A DNA stretch of 25,983 nucleotides, taken from NCBI GenBank assembly GCA_964501545.1, contig CAZCSH010000003.1, positions 1-25,983 of the forward strand, written 5' to 3'. Positions 5,439 through 12,991 of the stretch are shown here, one piece after another (the stretch's first letter is position 1; each line of letters starts with the position of its first letter). Source of the DNA: an uncultured Candidatus Saccharibacteria bacterium. Its GTDB lineage: Bacteria > Patescibacteriota > Minisyncoccia > Minisyncoccales > RBG-13-42-11. Made by a program: the position numbers and the translations under genes. The notes under the pieces are model-generated. The model made no database searches, was not told where the DNA came from, and worked only from the letters and a program-made list of their open reading frames with translations.

Positions 5439-6213
5439 TCCTAGAATAGCTATTATTGGTGGAAGCGGATTTTATGATCCTGGCATTTTTAAGAAAGAGA
5501 GAGAAGTTAAGCTAAGAACTCCCTTTGGTTATCCTTCTGCTCCCATTGAAATAGGGAAGTTTTTGGGGAAGAGAGTTGCTTTTCTGGCCAGACACGGCAA
5601 GCGACATCAATTTCCTCCTCACCGGGTTCCTCAAAAAGCCAATCTTTGGGCTTTGAAGAAATTAGGAATAGAAAGAATCATTGGCATTTGTGCGGTAGGC
5701 TCTCTGAAGAAAAACTTCAAACCAGGAGACATTGTCATTTGCGACCAATTTATTGATTTCACTAAAAAAAGAGATTACACGTTTTATAATAAAGGGGCGG
5801 TTCATGTTTCTTTAGCTGACCCTTTTTGCCCGGAGTTAAGAAATTTATTTTCTAGGGAAGCAAAAAAGAAAGAAATCCCGGTGCATCCGACAGGAACCTA
5901 TTTTTGCATTGAGGGCCCTAGGTTTTCTACTCGGGCTGAATCAAGATTTTTTAAGAATTTCGCTGACATTATTGGTATGACCTTAGTGCCGGAAGTGATA
6001 TTGGCTAGGGAAGCTGAAATGTGTTATTTGTCCTTGGCCATGATTACTGATTTTGATGTTTGGCAGGAAAATCCAGTTTCGGCCAAAGAAGTAAAAACAA
6101 TAATGGCTCAAAACACAAAGAAGATCTCTCAACTCTTAAAAGAGACTATTCCCAAAATACCAGAGAAAAGAAAATGTTCGTGCAAAGAAGTTTTGAAAAA
6201 TGCCAAACTCTAA
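5413..6213 (+). CDS. mtnP: S-methyl-5'-thioadenosine phosphorylase (MTAP/PNP family 2)
   Basis: Motifs IIGGSG, FLARHG, AVGSL, EGPRFSTRAES, GMTLVPE and TDFD. Confidence 0.9.
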   Translation: MPKNYSKSNPRIAIIGGSGFYDPGIFKKEREVKLRTPFGYPSAPIEIGKFLGKRVAFLARHGKRHQFPPHRVPQKANLWALKKLGIERIIGICAVGSLKKNFKPGDIVICDQFIDFTKKRDYTFYNKGAVHVSLADPFCPELRNLFSREAKKKEIPVHPTGTYFCIEGPRFSTRAESRFFKNFADIIGMTLVPEVILAREAEMCYLSLAMITDFDVWQENPVSAKEVKTIMAQNTKKISQLLKETIPKIPEKRKCSCKEVLKNAKL

Positions 6214-8731
6214 TTACAATTCTCAAACACCCGAGCGAGGCGAAGCCGAGCGAAGGGTGAAGATGAAGGCAAACTTCGGAGAAGGCAAACTTCATCGCCA
6301 AATAGAGCCCAAATGGCAGAAATACTGGGAAGAGAATAGTTTTTTTCAGGCTGAAGATTTCTCAAAGAAGAAAAAGCTCTACATTTTAATTGAATTTCCC
6401 TATCCTTCGGGAGATGGTCTTCACGTTGGTCACGTGAGATCTTATTCTGCCTTGGATGCAGTGGCCAGAAAAAAAAGGATGGAGGGATTTAATGTTTTAT
6501 ATCCTATTGGCTGGGATGCTTTCGGCCTCCCAACAGAAAACTATGCCATTCGAACCGGTATTCACCCTCAGCTAGCCACTGAGAAAAACATAGAGACTTT
6601 TAAAAGGCAATTAAAGAGCTTGGGTCTTTCTTTTGATTGGTCAAGGGAGGTTAATACAACCAATCCTAGATACTACAAATGGACCCAATGGATATTCTTG
6701 AAGCTCTTTGAAAAAGGTCTGGCCTATCAAGCTGAAATCCCCGTTAACTGGTGCCCTTCTTGCAAAATAGGTTTGGCGAACGAAGAAGTACTAGGAGGTG
6801 CTTGTGAAAGATGTGGGACGCCAGTTGAGAAAAAGGTTTTAAAACAATGGATGTTAAAGATTACAAAGTATGCTGACAGACTTCTGGAAGACTTGGGAAA
6901 AGTTAATTATTTAGACAAGATTAAAGCTCAGCAAGTTAACTGGATAGGCAAGAGCTGTGGAACAGAAGTGGATTTTCAGGTTGAAGGCTCAAAAGAGAAA
7001 ATATCTGTCTTTACCACTAGAATTGATACTCTTTTTGGGACAACTGCTGTGGTTTTAGCTCCGGAGCATCCTTTAGCCGAAACATTAATTACCCGAGCCA
7101 CAGCGAAGGGTGAAGAAGAAGATTTATCTTCTTCGACTACTAAAGATAACAAAGAAAAAGTAGAAAAATACATTAGAGAAGCCAAAAGAAAAAGTGATTT
7201 TGAGAGGGAGAAATTAGAGAAAGAAAAAACAGGAGTTTTCACGGGCTCCTATTGTCTAAATCCTGGAAATCAAGAAAAGGTTCCTATCTGGATTGGAGAT
7301 TATGTGCTGGCTTCTTACGGAGGAGGGGCAGTAATGGTGGTTCCTGCTCACGATCATAGAGACTATGACTTTGCCAAAAAGTATGGTTTGGAAATCAGAA
7401 AGGTTGTAGCTGGAGGAGACATTAAAAAAGATCCCTTTGTTGATTATGGAAAGCTAGTTAATTCCGGAGAGTTTAATGGCTTATCTTCCAAAGAAGCGAT
7501 TGAAAAGATCACCAAGTGGCTGGAGAAGAAGAAACTGGGGAAAGAGATGGTTCAGTATAAATTGAGAGACTGGGTTTTTTCCCGCCAGCACTATTGGGGA
7601 GAGCCCATTCCTATTATCCACTGTTCAAAGTGTGGTCTGGTGCCAGTGCCAGAAAAAGACTTACCAGTTAAACTTCCCTACGTAGAGAAATACCAGCCCA
7701 CAGGTACAGGAGAATCACCTCTGGCCGCTGTTTCTGATTGGGTCAATGTTAAATGCCCAAAATGTAAGGGTGGGGCAAAGAGAGAAACAGATACTATGCC
7801 AAACTGGGCAGGGTCTAACTGGTATTTTATGAGATACTGCGATCCTGGAAATAATAAAGAGCTGGCAGATAAAAAGAAGTTAAAATATTGGCTGCCGGTT
7901 GATTGGTACAATGGCGGCATGGAACACACCACCTTGCACTTATTGTACTCCAGGTTTATTTACAAGTTCCTTTATGACATTAAAGTAGCTCCTGCCCCAG
8001 AGCCCTACCAAAAAAGAACTTCCCACGGTATGGTTTTGGCAGAGGACGGCAGGAAAATGTCAAAGTCCTTTGGCAACGTCATAAATCCAGATGATATTGT
8101 GGCTGAATATGGAGCTGATACCTTGAGGATTTATGAGATGTTTATGGGTCCCTTTGGCCAGGCTATTTCTTGGAGTGCTCAGGGAGTCAAGGGCGTGTAT
8201 CGCTTTTTGGAAAAAGTTTGGCACTTGGTCAAGACGGCTGAAGGGAAAACGAGTTCTAATGTTGCAAGAGCTTTGCACAAGTTAAATAAAAAAGTGGCGG
8301 AAGACATAGAGACTACAAAATTCAATACGGCTGTCGCAGCTTTCATGGAGTTTGTTAATTTAGCTTTGGAAGATACCAGCCAGGTAGGCAAGGACACGAT
8401 TGAAAGGTTTCTTTTATTGTTAGCTCCTTTTGCTCCCCATTTAACAGAGGAGCTTTGGCAGGGATTGGGCCACCAAGAAAGCATCTTTCTGGAAAAGTGG
8501 CCAAAGCATGACCCCAAACTGACAAAAGCAGAGATGATTACTTTGGTTATTCAAGTCAATGGCAAGGTTCGAGACAAAATTGAGGTGGCAGTTGGTATTT
8601 CAGAAGAAAAAGCAAAAAAGCTTGCAATTTCTCAAAAAAAGATACAAAATTGGATAGCTGGCAAAGAAGTTAAAAAGGTAATCTTTGTGCCAGAGAAGTT
8701 AATCAATATTGTTATGTCTAATGAAATTTAA
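6200..8731 (+). CDS. leuS: Leucine--tRNA ligase with two in-frame repeat insertions
   Basis: Motifs FPYPSGDGLHVGH, GWDAFGLP, CP1 editing domain (GGGAVMVVPAHD), RDWVFSRQHYWG and KMSKSFGN. Start 6200 is preferred because YN..IEPKWQ is split by the 6231-6299 insert. Confidence 0.97.
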   Translation: MPNSNYNSQTPERGEAERRVKMKANFGEGKLHRQIEPKWQKYWEENSFFQAEDFSKKKKLYILIEFPYPSGDGLHVGHVRSYSALDAVARKKRMEGFNVLYPIGWDAFGLPTENYAIRTGIHPQLATEKNIETFKRQLKSLGLSFDWSREVNTTNPRYYKWTQWIFLKLFEKGLAYQAEIPVNWCPSCKIGLANEEVLGGACERCGTPVEKKVLKQWMLKITKYADRLLEDLGKVNYLDKIKAQQVNWIGKSCGTEVDFQVEGSKEKISVFTTRIDTLFGTTAVVLAPEHPLAETLITRATAKGEEEDLSSSTTKDNKEKVEKYIREAKRKSDFEREKLEKEKTGVFTGSYCLNPGNQEKVPIWIGDYVLASYGGGAVMVVPAHDHRDYDFAKKYGLEIRKVVAGGDIKKDPFVDYGKLVNSGEFNGLSSKEAIEKITKWLEKKKLGKEMVQYKLRDWVFSRQHYWGEPIPIIHCSKCGLVPVPEKDLPVKLPYVEKYQPTGTGESPLAAVSDWVNVKCPKCKGGAKRETDTMPNWAGSNWYFMRYCDPGNNKELADKKKLKYWLPVDWYNGGMEHTTLHLLYSRFIYKFLYDIKVAPAPEPYQKRTSHGMVLAEDGRKMSKSFGNVINPDDIVAEYGADTLRIYEMFMGPFGQAISWSAQGVKGVYRFLEKVWHLVKTAEGKTSSNVARALHKLNKKVAEDIETTKFNTAVAAFMEFVNLALEDTSQVGKDTIERFLLLLAPFAPHLTEELWQGLGHQESIFLEKWPKHDPKLTKAEMITLVIQVNGKVRDKIEVAVGISEEKAKKLAISQKKIQNWIAGKEVKKVIFVPEKLINIVMSNEI
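6231..6299 (+). repeat. Hairpin repeat family A, in frame (69 nt) in the leuS N-terminus
   Basis: CCGAGC...GCGAAGGGTGAAGATGAAG-loop-CTTCATCGCC. Encodes PERGEAERRVKMKANFGEGKLHR. Confidence 0.8.
7093..7137 (+). repeat. Hairpin repeat family A, in frame in the leuS editing domain
   Basis: CCGAGCCACAGCGAAGGGTGAAGAAGAAGATTTATCTTCTTCGAC, flanked by TAC (7090-7092 and 7138-7140). The net 48 nt encodes RATAKGEEEDLSSSTT. Confidence 0.82.
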
Positions 8732-9620
8732 AGAGATATTTATAAAAAGATATTTCCGAATGGCGGACAGAATGGGTCAATTGATAAAATCCAAAGCGGT
8801 TAAAGAAAATTTATCAAGTTCTCGGATAGCGTCTTTAACCGGAGTCAGCGAGAGTTATGCTGAACATTTTGTTAGGAACGACCGTAATTTTAGAGAAGAT
8901 CAGCTCCAAAAGATATTGCCATTGTTTGGCGTCATCTTTCCTTCTGGAAGTTTCTTTCCTGTTAATACGACTCAGGGAAATTTTATAAGCTTGCCCAATA
9001 TAAGTTCGCCAGAACTGATGCAGATTATTGGTTATTTTTTAGGCGATGGAAATTTGCAGAAAAGATCAATAAGGTTTAAGGACTCAGACAAAGAAGTGCT
9101 TAATGTTTATCAACGACTGATTAGAAAAACCTTTAATATTGAAGGAAGGGTTGTCCCGCAGAAAGGGACCATAGCTTATCTCCTCGAAGTGAACAGCCTT
9201 TATTTAAGAAAATGGTTCCAAGAAAATATAGTTTCCAGAAAAAAAGAGTTTTTAGAAGAAGTAAATCAACTCCCTCAGAAAAAGTTGACTGCCTTTCTCC
9301 GGGGCCTTTTTGATGCCGAAGGATTTGTCGCAATTCAATCAAGGCAAATAAGGCTTGGGATAACCAATAGAGAAATAGGGGAAATCCTTCCAGCTCTCAT
9401 TTCTAAACTCGGGATACCATTAACTTCTCACCTGATAAAACGAAGGGAGCCCAACTGGAAAGACGTTTATCTTATTTCCTTGAATAATTACGCATCCTTT
9501 GATAAGTTTTCTAAATATATAGGATTTTCTTCAAAAGAAAAAAATAAAAGGCTTGAGTTTCTTATCGAGAGGAAGCCTAAAATAAAGTTAATGAATAAAT
9601 TTAATTTATGTGTGGGATAA
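8721..9620 (+). CDS. Free-standing HTH + double-LAGLIDADG (DOD/intein-type) endonuclease-like protein
   Basis: Motifs ELMQIIGYFLGDG and FLRGLFDAEG, with an N-terminal HTH-like segment (SSSRIASLTGVSESYAEHF). No Hint motifs. Start is uncertain (8721/8760/8772). Overlaps the leuS end and the glmS start. Confidence 0.85.
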   Translation: MKFKEIFIKRYFRMADRMGQLIKSKAVKENLSSSRIASLTGVSESYAEHFVRNDRNFREDQLQKILPLFGVIFPSGSFFPVNTTQGNFISLPNISSPELMQIIGYFLGDGNLQKRSIRFKDSDKEVLNVYQRLIRKTFNIEGRVVPQKGTIAYLLEVNSLYLRKWFQENIVSRKKEFLEEVNQLPQKKLTAFLRGLFDAEGFVAIQSRQIRLGITNREIGEILPALISKLGIPLTSHLIKRREPNWKDVYLISLNNYASFDKFSKYIGFSSKEKNKRLEFLIERKPKIKLMNKFNLCVG

Positions 9621-11434
9621 TAGGATACATAGGTAAAAGAAACGCGACTCCGATTCTAACTGAGGGCCTTCGTCGAGAAAGCTATCGCGGATATGATTCT
9701 AGCGGTTTGGCTTTATTTGACGGGAAGGAGATAATCTGCGTTAAGGCGGTAGGAAAACTAGAGAATTTGGAGAGTAAACTGAGGAGCCAAGCCCCCGAAG
9801 GACTTTTAGGGCTAGGACACGTGAGATGGGCAACGACTGGTGAGGTAACAGAAGCCAATGCCCATCCTCAATCAGATTGCCGGGGAAACATTTGGCTAGT
9901 CCACAACGGCATTATTGAAAACTACCGTACCCTAAAGGAGAACCTAGAGAAAGAGGGCCACAAGTTTTCTTCTGAAACCGATACCGAAGTCATCGCCCAC
10001 CTTGTTGAAAAGTTCTTTCAGGGCAATCTTGAAGAAGCTGTCAGAAGGGCGACAAAGCTTTTAAAAGGAACCTATGGACTGGCTGTTATTTCCAAGAACG
10101 ACCCTCAAAAAATAGTTGCCGTCCGTCTTTCCAGTCCTCTGTTGGTTGGAGTGGGCGACAATGAATACTTGGTAGCCTCCGATCCCTCAGCCGTTATCGC
10201 CCATACTAATAAAGTAATTTATTTGGATGAAGGAGAATTGGCCGTTCTTTCCCCGGAAGACTTCAAAATTATGAGCTTGGGAGGGGGAAAAATAACACCC
10301 GAGACGGAAGAAATAGACTGGACATTGGAAGACGCCCAGAAAGGAGACTATCCCCACTTTATGTTAAAAGAAATAATGGAGCAGCCGGAAAGCATTATGA
10401 ACTCTTTGCGCGGGAGGATTATTTTGGAAGAAGGCAAAGCAAGATTGGGAGGCTTAACCTTTGTTCATGATAAATTAAGGAATATTAAAAAAATAAACAT
10501 TGTTGCCTGCGGCACAGCTTATTATGCAGGTCTGGTGGGTGAGTATATGCTAGAAGAATATGCCGGCATTCCCACAGAAGTAGATTTTGGTTCAGAGTTC
10601 CGTTATAGAAAGCCGGTTTTGGACAAAGACACTTTGATTTTAGCCATCTCCCAGTCAGGAGAAACAGCAGACACCTTAGCCGCGCTGCGGGAGATGAAGA
10701 ATAAAGGGATGTTAACAATTGGCATTACTAATGTCGTAGGTTCTTCCCAAGCCCGGGAGACAGATGCTGGCGTTTACAACCATGCCGGCTCCGAAATTGG
10801 AGTGGCTTCAACCAAAGCTTTTACTTCCCAATTGACTGTTCTTGCTCTTTTGGCTTTGTATTTGGGAAGACAGCGCCAGCTTTCTTTGGTTATGGGTCAA
10901 AGAATAGCCAAAGAGCTTAGTCGAATTCCTGAATTAGCTCAAAAGACTCTGGAACAAAATGAAAGAATCAAGACATTAGCTGCAAAATACAAAGATTACA
11001 AAAACTTTTTATACCTGGGCAGAAAATACAATTATCCCATTGCTTTGGAAGGAGCTTTAAAACTCAAAGAAATCTCTTATTTGCATGCTGAAGGATACGG
11101 AGCAGGAGAAATGAAGCACGGTCCTTTAGCTTTGATAGATGAGAACTTCCCCACTTTTGTTATTGCTCCCTCAGACAGCGTGTATGAGAAAGTGATTACC
11201 AATGCGGAAGAAGTGAAAGCGAGAAAAGGACCAATTTTAGCTTTAGCCACAGAGGGGAACGAGGATATTAAAAGGGTTGCAGAAGACATAATTTATATTC
11301 CCAAAACCCTTGAGATGCTTACTCCCATTTTGAGCGTTATCCCACTTCAGCTTTTTGCCTATCATGTTGGGGTTTTACGCGGTTGTGATGTGGACAAACC
11401 TAGGAATTTAGCTAAGGCGGTTAGTGTAGAGTAA
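9608..11434 (+). CDS. glmS: Glutamine--fructose-6-phosphate aminotransferase (isomerizing)
   Basis: N-terminal MCGIIG, RGYDSSG, HNGIIEN, SETDTEV, SIS motifs SQSGETADT, LEGALKLKEISY and DKPRNLAK. Continuous, with no intein. Confidence 0.97.
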   Translation: MCGIIGYIGKRNATPILTEGLRRESYRGYDSSGLALFDGKEIICVKAVGKLENLESKLRSQAPEGLLGLGHVRWATTGEVTEANAHPQSDCRGNIWLVHNGIIENYRTLKENLEKEGHKFSSETDTEVIAHLVEKFFQGNLEEAVRRATKLLKGTYGLAVISKNDPQKIVAVRLSSPLLVGVGDNEYLVASDPSAVIAHTNKVIYLDEGELAVLSPEDFKIMSLGGGKITPETEEIDWTLEDAQKGDYPHFMLKEIMEQPESIMNSLRGRIILEEGKARLGGLTFVHDKLRNIKKINIVACGTAYYAGLVGEYMLEEYAGIPTEVDFGSEFRYRKPVLDKDTLILAISQSGETADTLAALREMKNKGMLTIGITNVVGSSQARETDAGVYNHAGSEIGVASTKAFTSQLTVLALLALYLGRQRQLSLVMGQRIAKELSRIPELAQKTLEQNERIKTLAAKYKDYKNFLYLGRKYNYPIALEGALKLKEISYLHAEGYGAGEMKHGPLALIDENFPTFVIAPSDSVYEKVITNAEEVKARKGPILALATEGNEDIKRVAEDIIYIPKTLEMLTPILSVIPLQLFAYHVGVLRGCDVDKPRNLAKAVSVE

Positions 11435-11488: not shown

Positions 11489-11512
11489 TAAATGAGACAA
11501 GGAAAATGGTTT

Positions 11513-12991
11513 ATGAAAATTAATTTTATTTCAGTTATAAGAAGAGGAAACGGACGCGGTACAGGCTTTTTTTATATCCCAAAAGATAAAATATGTTTGT
11601 TTAGGTTAAATGACTGGGTGCGTATTAAATTATCGGAAGAGGTTTCTTTTTTCTCTAAGATAATATTCTATTCTCATAGATTGGGAATATATATTCCTCA
11701 ACATATTGTAAGTAAAAATGATTTATTGGGTAAAGAGGTTAAAATTGAAGTAAAAAAGCTAAATGGATTTTATGCTTCTGTAGGTTTCGATGGCAGAGTA
11801 TACATTCCTCAGGATATTGTCCAAAAACAAATAATTAAACAAAATGATATAATTTTAATAAAAGCCATAAAAGAAAATAAAGTTATTAAAGAAAAATATT
11901 CAAAAATACACGTTACCATTAGAAGACAAAGAAAACAAAAAGAATATACTTGCATTTTTGACAGAAATTTTTATGGGGAGGAACTTCTATTTCAAATTGA
12001 AAAAGGGCAGCAGAGAAGCAGAACGGTAAAATTAAGTGCCCCAATAGAAAGACTTCTGAGGCGAATGCACTACACATTTATTCAAGAGAATTCGGCGATC
12101 ATTTTTAAGGGAAACAAAGTTCCGGCAATTATTCATACAAACTTAAATTATTCTAACATAGCATTTTATTTGGGAGCATACTTTGCAGACGGAACTAAGA
12201 AGGGAAACAATTGGGCAATTTGTGCATCAACTTTTGAGCAGGCAAGATATTATTTAGAAATGCACAATTCAATAATTAAAGATTCAAAACCAGAATTAAT
12301 ACTTTCCTACACGGATATTGAGAATAGTGATAAAGATAAACTTAAGAGGAAATTAGCCAAAGTGTGGAAAGATAGAGTTGGGCTAAATGTATATAAATTT
12401 AGAATAAGAAAATCAATCGGAAAATTCACTTTTAAAAGAAATCAATACGGAACTCTTGTTATAAGAGAATCTAGACAACTACTGTTAAATATCTATAATA
12501 TTTTATTAGAATTTTTAATAAAGGAAATTTTAACAAATAAGAACAAAAAATTAGCCATAGACTTTATTTGTGGGGTTTTGGAGGGCGATGGCTGTGTCCC
12601 GTCCAAAAAACGAGGACATATAACAATTTCTCTTAATAAAAAGGATGTCCCCATTATAGAAAATGTTTTTAAAGTAGCTCAAATAAAATTTAAGATTCTC
12701 AAGGAAGGTGAAAATAAATATACTTTAAGGGTTGGCTCTCTTACACTAATAAAGAATTTTCATCTTTTGAAGGATAAGATTTTTATTTTATACCCCAAAA
12801 GACGAAAAGCATTTCTTGAGCGATTTAAAACGGTCGGTGCTGTTCAATCCTTGATAAAGAATTATAAACCAGTCGATTGGGTAAGGATTTGGTTGAATAA
12901 TAATGATTTTATCGCAGAAAAAGGAAAGATTACCAGTAAAGGGTTAAGGTTTGCCCGTGACTTTAAGGCTTGTAAAATTGCTATTAATTGA
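11513..12991 (+). CDS. LAGLIDADG-like protein with three N-terminal AbrB/MazE-like repeats
   Basis: Motifs FYLGAYFADG and FICGVLEGDG. Three G-x-x-YIP-type repeats in the first ~120 aa. Visibly AT-richer than its neighbours. The track start of 11492 is also possible. Confidence 0.7.
   Translation: MKINFISVIRRGNGRGTGFFYIPKDKICLFRLNDWVRIKLSEEVSFFSKIIFYSHRLGIYIPQHIVSKNDLLGKEVKIEVKKLNGFYASVGFDGRVYIPQDIVQKQIIKQNDIILIKAIKENKVIKEKYSKIHVTIRRQRKQKEYTCIFDRNFYGEELLFQIEKGQQRSRTVKLSAPIERLLRRMHYTFIQENSAIIFKGNKVPAIIHTNLNYSNIAFYLGAYFADGTKKGNNWAICASTFEQARYYLEMHNSIIKDSKPELILSYTDIENSDKDKLKRKLAKVWKDRVGLNVYKFRIRKSIGKFTFKRNQYGTLVIRESRQLLLNIYNILLEFLIKEILTNKNKKLAIDFICGVLEGDGCVPSKKRGHITISLNKKDVPIIENVFKVAQIKFKILKEGENKYTLRVGSLTLIKNFHLLKDKIFILYPKRRKAFLERFKTVGAVQSLIKNYKPVDWVRIWLNNNDFIAEKGKITSKGLRFARDFKACKIAIN

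Follow-up and report, generated by a model that had tools for sequence, protein, structure and literature searches.

In textbook models endonucleases move into inteins; the opposite passage, from intein to free gene, is to our knowledge well known only for the yeast HO/WHO lineage. Here we describe a candidate bacterial counterpart in a stretch of 25,983 nucleotides (the window; contig CAZCSH010000003.1 of assembly GCA_964501545.1, from an uncultured Candidatus Saccharibacteria bacterium), an ordinary chromosome segment of a Nealsonbacteria-like bacterium of the candidate phyla radiation (CPR, Patescibacteria). In it an open reading frame (ORF) for a helix-turn-helix (HTH) and two-motif LAGLIDADG protein lies between leuS and an uninterrupted glmS. 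We consider it probable, if well short of assured, that this ORF is the endonuclease module of a GlmS intein that has lost its splicing (Hint) halves and is now an independent gene at the leuS-glmS junction, where it would act as a selfish nuclease. The same intein-to-free-gene transition would then be found in bacteria, with the stages of the homing cycle and the escaped endonuclease within one gene order.

The nearest described relative is the GlmS (GF-6P) intein itself, inserted at ..GH^(S/C)RWAT.. (a caret marks an intein junction throughout), which carries the same HTH and two-motif LAGLIDADG module at 30-58% identity over the full length and shares its gene neighbourhood with the window in CPR relatives such as locus L048; the window ORF, by contrast, lacks the Hint blocks and is a separate gene upstream of glmS. 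In mechanism the closest analogue, judged by arrangement, is the yeast WHO family, intein-derived free-standing endonucleases beside FBA1, from which HO descends and which cleave sensitive alleles of FBA1 and supply a resistant end for the gene (Coughlan et al., 2020, summarised in PMC7282806). The yeast genes resemble the window ORF in being intein-derived endonucleases turned free genes beside a housekeeping metabolic gene. They differ as follows: WHO and HO keep an intein-like (Hint-derived) domain and have a zinc finger added to it, whereas the Hint parts of the window ORF are wholly gone; WHO genes lie downstream of FBA1 among FBA1 fragments, whereas the window gene lies upstream of glmS with no glmS fragments; and the WHO hosts are eukaryotes rather than CPR bacteria, with cleavage and resistance demonstrated for WHO6, whereas the window enzyme is known from its sequence.

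Other systems share parts of this arrangement. The T-even phage enzymes SegF, SegG and MobE carry out 'intronless homing', cutting hundreds of bp away from where they are encoded (PMC2988022). They are alike in lying between conserved genes with the expected site hundreds of bp off in a conserved neighbour, but their break repair entails co-conversion, none of which is detectable at the loci of the window element, and they are GIY-YIG or HNH enzymes of phages with no intein ancestry, whereas the window enzyme is a LAGLIDADG protein on a cellular chromosome. The 'collaborative homing' of F-CphI at cyanophage psbA (Zeng, Bonocora and Shub, 2009, cited in PMC3229294) likewise involves a free endonuclease beside the gene with the targeted insertion site; there the neighbour keeps an endonuclease-less intron guarding the site, whereas the window glmS has neither an intein nor a mini-intein. 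In 'fractured genes' (Dassa et al., 2009; PMC2677866) an endonuclease ORF also stands apart from the splicing domain at an intein locus, but there the host gene is split at the intein site with the endonuclease between the halves, whereas the window glmS is whole and accompanied by no split-intein halves. The current intein literature has free-standing endonucleases entering inteins, not leaving them (bioRxiv 10.1101/2025.01.02.630785). Our literature searches found no report of a free endonuclease derived from a GlmS intein, nor of such elements in CPR, and searches for the GF-6P intein and for a glmS intein with LAGLIDADG returned nothing. By inference, the window element would work like a WHO- or Seg-type element. 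The locus offers a natural series of close LAGLIDADG enzymes with variant targets in an essential gene, useful for the study of specificity drift, and it lays both the route of evolution and target-site immunity open to direct testing.

The endonuclease gene and its intein relatives

The ORF as listed spans positions 8709-9620 of the forward strand (Table 1). The ATG at 8721 is the start kept in its homologues, all of which begin MKF(K/Q/E)EIF, and the upstream TTG start at 8709 is probably not used. From this ATG the gene shares the last 11 nt of leuS, whose stop codon is at 8729-8731, and at its other end it overlaps the glmS start (9608) by 13 nt. Pfam matches the protein to LAGLIDADG_3 in two stretches (E=1.9e-21) and gives no match to Intein_splicing (PF14890) in it, even at E<=0.1; as a positive control, the GlmS of L048 scores 64.5 bits on that model, with Cys1, HN and +1 Cys. 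The window protein begins MKFKEIF and ends NLCVG, without a block A Cys or Ser, without a TxxH region and without a terminal HN. Lacking these defining Hint features, and encoded by an ORF of its own outside the glmS frame, the protein is not an intein. Its coordinates and Pfam matches confirm the description given by an earlier model-made reading of the letters (the sequence-only reading), which had seen an HTH and two-motif LAGLIDADG ORF without Hint motifs, overlapping both leuS and glmS.

By sequence and predicted fold the protein is a monomeric, two-motif member of the LAGLIDADG family. In its AlphaFold2 (AF2) model (predicted local distance difference test, pLDDT, 89.4) an N-terminal four-helix domain is followed by a LAGLIDADG core with the pseudo-symmetric alpha-beta-beta-alpha-beta-beta-alpha fold. 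Foldseek matches the model with probability 1.0 to the TliVMA intein (7qss) and PI-PfuI first, then to I-DmoI and PI-SceI, and a PDB sequence search returns its matches in the same order. The first motif aligns with motif 1 of I-DmoI and of the TliVMA intein and the second with GLFDAEG of PI-PfuI; the invariance of motif residues was judged over 12 free-standing homologues. The helices of the HTH-like domain span residues 16-28, 33-40, 44-52 and 59-69 in the model. One homologue (P0010) carries a precomputed PF01381 HTH_3 annotation, and the region matches C.BclI weakly among PDB sequences (E=0.11). The domain is also present in intein-borne relatives, whose endonucleases align with the window protein from residue 1.

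Species-representative genomes and JGI metagenomes were scanned and 123 loci fetched, which are cited here by number. About 15 free-standing homologues came up in the protein search, 274-302 aa long and 53-73% identical to the window protein. At about 55 of the fetched loci an endonuclease homologue lies in a single frame between GlmS residues 1-72 and 73-608 (tblastn), and its identity to the window ORF, within the range given above, extends across the full length, the HTH part included. At L001, for example, the GlmS N-terminus (P0016) leads, through ..SIGIGH^CLTPDTLIQ.., into an intein that terminates ..LLSHN^SRWSTHG and has an interior 58% identical to the window ORF. All the junctions follow one pattern, ..G(I/L)(G/A)H^C(L)xP(D/N)T ... 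(S/T/Q)HN^(S or C)RWAT(H/T)G, and the hosts include Omnitrophota, Saccharibacteria, Elusimicrobia, Acidobacteriota, other Patescibacteria, Micrarchaeota, Nitrosopumilales and Methanomicrobia. The closest matches that are not themselves free-standing are GlmS inteins (L001, L048, L051, L060, L062 and L077), at 50-58% identity over the whole ORF. Relative to the intein, the free ORF lacks about 105 Hint residues at the N-terminus and about 50 at the C-terminus. These alignments show decisively that the window ORF is homologous to the endonuclease interiors of GlmS inteins. The resemblance that the sequence-only reading had named is real, and the His^Ser insertion point that it gave for Methanocaldococcus jannaschii is the position, His71^residue 72, of some 55 GlmS inteins other than that one.

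The direction of evolution was read from a neighbor-joining tree of 53 GlmS-associated endonucleases, 14 of them free-standing, and from a second tree with 49 endonucleases from other hosts as outgroup. In the first, all 14 free-standing copies group together with a bootstrap of 90 on 283 columns; on the shorter alignment of 191 columns used with the outgroup the value is 43-44. When the outgroup is included, the GlmS-associated enzymes fall in one clade whose root lies among intein-borne members, with the free copies deep inside; in 99 of 100 bootstraps the free copies, together with some intein-borne ones, fall in a clade that excludes at least five other intein-borne copies and all outgroups. 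Free copies are confined to CPR lineages that share the leuS-glmS junction, whereas intein-borne copies occur in two domains. A polarity from intein to free-standing gene is well supported by these sequence comparisons, since both the outgroup tree and the narrow spread of free as against the two-domain spread of intein-borne copies indicate it. The claim that an intein endonuclease has become free-standing some 200 bp upstream of its ancestral target accordingly stands in both parts, the distance (200 nt) and, as the trees suggest, the derivation. A single origin of the free-standing group is likely, not certain, because its monophyly drops to the lower bootstrap on the shorter alignment.

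Several further observations concern the intein-bearing loci. In the full-length tree the endonucleases nearest the free-standing clade are those of L048, L003 and L054, all with Cys at +1; in almost every other GlmS intein this residue is Ser. The intein-bearing glmS at L001:1622-3374 has a deletion of about 25 codons and a frameshift within its endonuclease module and is frameshifted again further on, and it may be a decaying intein, a pseudogene or the product of a poor-quality contig. L053 had been considered as an intermediate, with an N-extein, an endonuclease and a full-length glmS; its junction sequence is that of an ordinary intein, and the long high-scoring segment pair was spurious.

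Occupied, decayed and empty junctions

All nine of the free-standing copies with readable flanks, among 14, lie at the leuS-glmS junction: the window, L002 (a Nealsonbacteria metagenome-assembled genome), L045, L046, L047, L130, L131, L132/L133 and L134. Each has leuS upstream and a full-length, intein-free glmS directly downstream, and the leuS-glmS gap of 876-908 nt is taken up by the endonuclease ORF; Hint remnants and glmS fragments beside the free-standing gene were looked for at these occupied loci and none was found. At the empty junctions L126/127, L128/129 and L135 the leuS stop is 0-3 nt from the glmS ATG (0 nt in L126), with no endonuclease, and a fourth, L136, has a longer gap of 67 nt; L128, L135 and L136 come from other LeuS groups or have this longer gap. 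At L125 the gap of 297 nt codes for endonuclease residues 1-76 only (46% identity, E=1e-19), the LAGLIDADG core being deleted. Inteins interrupt glmS in further relatives with the order tatD-leuS-glmS-POR (L048, L052, L054, L058 and L064). A single LeuS group (71-80% identity, two partial-LeuS loci excepted) holds the intein-bearing L048, the decayed L125, the empty L126 and seven free-standing loci (the window, L045, L047, L130, L131, L132/133 and L134). Intein-bearing, free, decayed and empty states coexist among close relatives in the same tatD-leuS-glmS-POR order, and the free form is an independent ORF between conserved genes, present in some of these relatives and absent from others.

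Codon comparisons indicate that the free-standing endonucleases are under purifying selection, with a dN/dS of 0.22 for the sole unsaturated pair (L132/L134, dS 0.36) and of 0.09-0.15 for older pairs. Their history is uncoupled from that of the neighboring leuS, as endonuclease and LeuS identities are uncorrelated over the nine occupied loci (Spearman rho -0.02): relative to the window, L002 and L046 have LeuS proteins 55-57% identical and endonucleases 65% identical, and L047 has a LeuS 75% identical and an endonuclease only 57% identical. This uncoupling, together with the clean empty sites and the remnant, fits a gene that would be gained by homologous replacement and lost by decay. A mapping of gains and losses on a neighbor-joining tree of GlmS was too poorly resolved, and several of its intein-bearing entries were incomplete and mislabelled. 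In several endonuclease-carrying loci glmS codons 1-65 are closer to those of the window than codons 85-280 are; we rejected this as a trace of co-conversion, as the excess holds for alleles with Val at residue 72 generally and is unaccompanied by a Mantel correlation with endonuclease identity.

The junction shows other rearrangements. The L125 remnant lies in a 116-aa ORF between leuS and glmS (L125:3206-3556) that holds the HTH part only. In the intein-bearing L052 the junction contains a 550-bp insertion with a 107-aa membrane-protein ORF (L052:1075-1626) and a small chimeric ORF, MCGIARKNKK...KKMIFVPGKLINFVI, that duplicates the glmS head and the leuS tail. The insertion and the chimeric ORF of L052 suggest that the leuS-glmS junction is a recurrent recombination site.

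The putative glmS target and competing explanations

The window glmS reads G-H-V-R-W-A-T-T-G at codons 9815-9841, where the aligned E. coli GlmS has G-I-A-H-T-R-W-A-T-H-G, in agreement with the departure from the family's GH-(T/S)-RWATHG on which the sequence-only reading had remarked. The ancestral insertion point falls between codon 71 (His, 9818-9820) and codon 72 (Val, 9821-9823), 200 nt 3' of the endonuclease stop. Intein-bearing alleles necessarily have Ser or Cys at this +1 position. That Val there blocks splicing, as had been stated, is true but beside the point, since the window glmS contains no intein.

In the account we favor, the HTH and two-motif LAGLIDADG module of a GlmS intein would have lost both Hint halves and become an independent gene at the leuS-glmS junction, 200 nt upstream of the site that the enzyme was built to cut. 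It would persist and move among related CPR genomes through a double-strand break followed by homologous repair, with leuS and glmS as homology arms, and the break would most simply fall at or near the ancestral glmS site of genomes without the endonuclease. On this model the resident glmS must be uncuttable, to which a non-nucleophile at codon 72 (V, I or N in eight of the nine linked alleles) could add. Such intein-less homing by cutting glmS is plausible in view of the patchy distribution, the decayed remnant and a history uncoupled from LeuS. We consider less likely than not the stronger form of this account, in which homing is active in these bacteria, the enzyme cuts canonical GIGH^S/T/C glmS elsewhere, and V, I and N at residue 72 are resistance alleles.

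The claim that the linked allele has been recoded to immunity lacks specific support. Of the nine intact glmS genes linked to an endonuclease, six have Val at residue 72, one has Ile, one Asn and one Ser (L131). For comparison we took the 119 nearest intein-less GlmS, all from CPR and 68-77% identical to the window GlmS, whose own protein was excluded (one of the 119 fell outside the first motif pattern; a wider pattern matched all 119). In 118 of them the residue is T in 57, V in 35, S in 11, N in nine, L in three, C in two and I in one. When the eight of nine linked alleles with V, I or N at +1 are set against 47 of 117 in the background, a naive Fisher test gives p=0.01; the alleles follow GlmS lineage, however, so the result does not count as independent support. 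The glmS beside the L125 remnant also carries Val. The HVRWAT(T/H)G allele, expected by the sequence-only reading to occur together with the ORF, is common in relatives that lack it, an observation which that reading had itself named as contrary to its proposal. As judged from these alignments, a non-nucleophile at codon 72 is a lineage-wide polymorphism rather than a signature of the endonuclease, and a free copy may be able to persist only beside an uncuttable site, supplied by the V, I and N lineages. The WATTG variant (H77T) was likewise rejected as an immunity recoding, being present in the intein-bearing L049, L050, L064, L069 and L072 as well as in roughly one in four of the 119 relatives.

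A number of observations weigh against the favored account. An intact endonuclease is linked at L131 to a canonical GIGH-S-RWAT site, a non-nucleophile (V, N, L or I) occupies +1 in 48 of the 119 nearest intein-less GlmS, and the clean empty junctions carry Val (L126, L128 and L135) or Asn (L136). There is no co-conversion signal between endonuclease identity and glmS codons 1-65 (rho 0.01, Mantel p 0.48). The enzyme may have acquired another target or may have no nuclease activity. No intermediate was found for the route from inside glmS to a position 200-odd bp upstream; an ectopic cut site behind the relocation was considered because CGIIGY at the start of glmS resembles GIGH of the homing half-site, but the likeness is too weak. 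The trees are neighbor-joining only, with the monophyly of the free group weak on the core alignment, and all the related data are metagenomic contigs.

Some of these observations would be explained by a mobile free endonuclease whose target is now the empty junction itself (LeuS tail ..KLINIV at the stop and GlmS head MCGIIGYIG), so that its own insertion disrupts the site and gives immunity with no recoding of glmS. Insertion always exactly at the junction, where most empty genomes have 0-3 nt between the leuS stop and the glmS ATG (67 nt in L136), would follow from such a change, as would the intact endonuclease beside the canonical Ser site of L131 and the independence of V and N from endonuclease presence. 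We nevertheless think it unlikely, as it needs a full change of a specificity of roughly 20 bp, for which there is no evidence, in enzymes still 50-60% identical to their intein-borne relatives, HTH domain included; nor is a switch needed, given that free-standing endonucleases of T4 cut hundreds of bp from their own gene (PMC2988022). The reverse polarity, in which a free endonuclease beside glmS is ancestral and later invaded a GlmS mini-intein (the Bonocora-Shub or Dassa route), is the generally favored origin of intein endonucleases (bioRxiv 10.1101/2025.01.02.630785; PMC2677866) and agrees with the single split formed by the free copies in the unrooted tree. Here it is very improbable: the nesting of free within intein-borne copies in 99 of 100 bootstraps with outgroups speaks against it, as do the spread of intein-borne copies across archaea and many bacterial phyla against the confinement of free ones to CPR, and no mini-intein glmS was seen beside a free copy.

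Two further possibilities deny the gene a present life as a selfish element, and to each we give little credence. A domesticated HTH-LAGLIDADG protein, serving as a regulator or maturase-like factor for the leuS-glmS operon in the manner of WhiA, would suit the purifying selection, the tight translational coupling with overlaps at both ends, the HTH domain (WhiA is among the distant structural matches returned by Foldseek) and the HTH-only ORF kept by the L125 remnant. In WhiA-type domesticated proteins, however, the catalytic acids are lost, whereas here both (D109 and E200) are invariant; the gene is moreover patchy among close relatives, with clean empty sites, a decayed copy and a history incongruent with LeuS, and only about 15 clusters were found among 5.8 billion proteins. 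An immobile relic, left by a single ancient rearrangement and since inherited vertically and slowly lost, with no present activity, would agree with the existence of the remnant and of empty sites and with the missing co-conversion signal. It is hard to reconcile with a dN/dS of 0.1-0.2 and active-site residues that stay invariant while the proteins diverge by more than 40%, with clean junctions of 0-3 nt, which are difficult to obtain by loss, and with endonuclease distances that contradict those of LeuS.

GlmS residues 68-72 (window 9809-9823), normally an invariant G-x-G/A-H-(T/S), are hypervariable across the proteins P0022-P0140. The canonical G-x-G/A-H followed by S, T or C is present in only 16 of the 119 nearest intein-less relatives; grouped by segment, V, N, L or I stands at +1 in 45 of the same 119, and GxGH is replaced by sequences of the FLFY, FLFF or IILH type in 55. 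The canonical motif is kept in all intein-bearing exteins across phyla and in E. coli. Among the nearest CPR GlmS compared here, this variability might come from selection to escape the intein endonuclease, which makes the active-site segment a possible case of host-parasite co-evolution at the protein level. Were homing active as set out above, the diversity of the segment would be the footprint of a long arms race with both the intein and the escaped endonuclease.

Neighboring genes and the 3' side of glmS

The window carries, in order, genes for an M16 peptidase and an AI-2E transporter, metG, tatD, a PNP-family phosphorylase gene, leuS, the endonuclease ORF, glmS and a 499-aa ORF (ORF499), followed by genes for POR subunits, a murA-like gene, cofD, a glmU-like gene, sua5, an MFS gene, topA and mfd.

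Table 1. Positions of the features discussed, in window coordinates unless a locus number is given.
Feature	Position	Strand	Basis
leuS (leucyl-tRNA synthetase)	6200..8731	+	Pfam tRNA-synt_1, editing and anticodon domains
Free-standing two-motif LAGLIDADG homing-endonuclease gene, 299 aa	8721..9620	+	Pfam, homologue starts, intein-interior homology
N-terminal four-helix HTH-like DNA-binding domain (predicted), residues ~11-81	8751..8963	+	Helices in AF2 model, homologue HTH_3
LAGLIDADG motif 1, MQIIGYFLGDG, putative catalytic Asp109	9018..9050	+	G108, D109, G110 invariant
LAGLIDADG motif 2, FLRGLFDAEG, putative catalytic Glu200	9294..9323	+	F197, D198, A199, E200, G201 invariant
glmS (glutamine--fructose-6-phosphate aminotransferase), intein-free, 608 aa	9608..11434	+	Pfam GATase_6/7 and 2x SIS
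Ancestral intein homing site in glmS, L-G-L-G-H-V-R-W-A-T-T-G	9806..9841	+	~55 GlmS inteins
ORF499, LAGLIDADG-type gene between glmS and POR genes	11492..12991	+	AF2 and Foldseek, motif conservation
ORF499 homologue	L048:6750-8012
ORF499 homologue (Patescibacteria, different upstream genes)	L137:4001-5494
ORF499 homologue (Nanoarchaeota)	L138:4001-5473

The window LeuS ends LINIVMSNEI, that is, with an MSNEI extension; the LeuS proteins of 11 relatives stop at LINIV[IVF] or at a close variant of it (the tails of 12 loci were compared). The run-on past NIV that the sequence-only reading had pointed out is thus present, but its interpretation as the mark of an insertion junction is rejected, as most other endonuclease-carrying loci have normal LINIV[IV] ends; by this comparison MSNEI is a secondary change in LeuS specific to the window.

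ORF499 is an insertion relative to L126, L128, L131, L132, L135 and L136, where POR follows glmS directly. Its family, which counts at least 166 members of about 490 aa in CPR and in DPANN archaea, has no Pfam model and shows two conserved LAGLIDADG-like motifs, ..YLGAYFADGT and ..ICGVLEGDG; the AF2 model of ORF499 (pLDDT 90.6) matches LAGLIDADG and intein endonucleases in Foldseek. A family member lies immediately 3' of glmS in all four contexts examined (the window, L048, L137 and L138), and the family is absent from this position in many close relatives. By analogy, ORF499 may be a second selfish nuclease that uses the conserved 3' end of glmS as a landing site, in a manner reminiscent of attTn7. 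If active homing at the 5' side were also true, glmS would offer selfish nucleases of CPR and DPANN a landing site on both of its sides. The gene is unrelated to the upstream endonuclease and has an N-terminal beta-rich region named AbrB/PrlF-like by JGI. At L125 a Gp49/HTH toxin-antitoxin-like pair lies downstream of glmS, at the position of ORF499 in the window.

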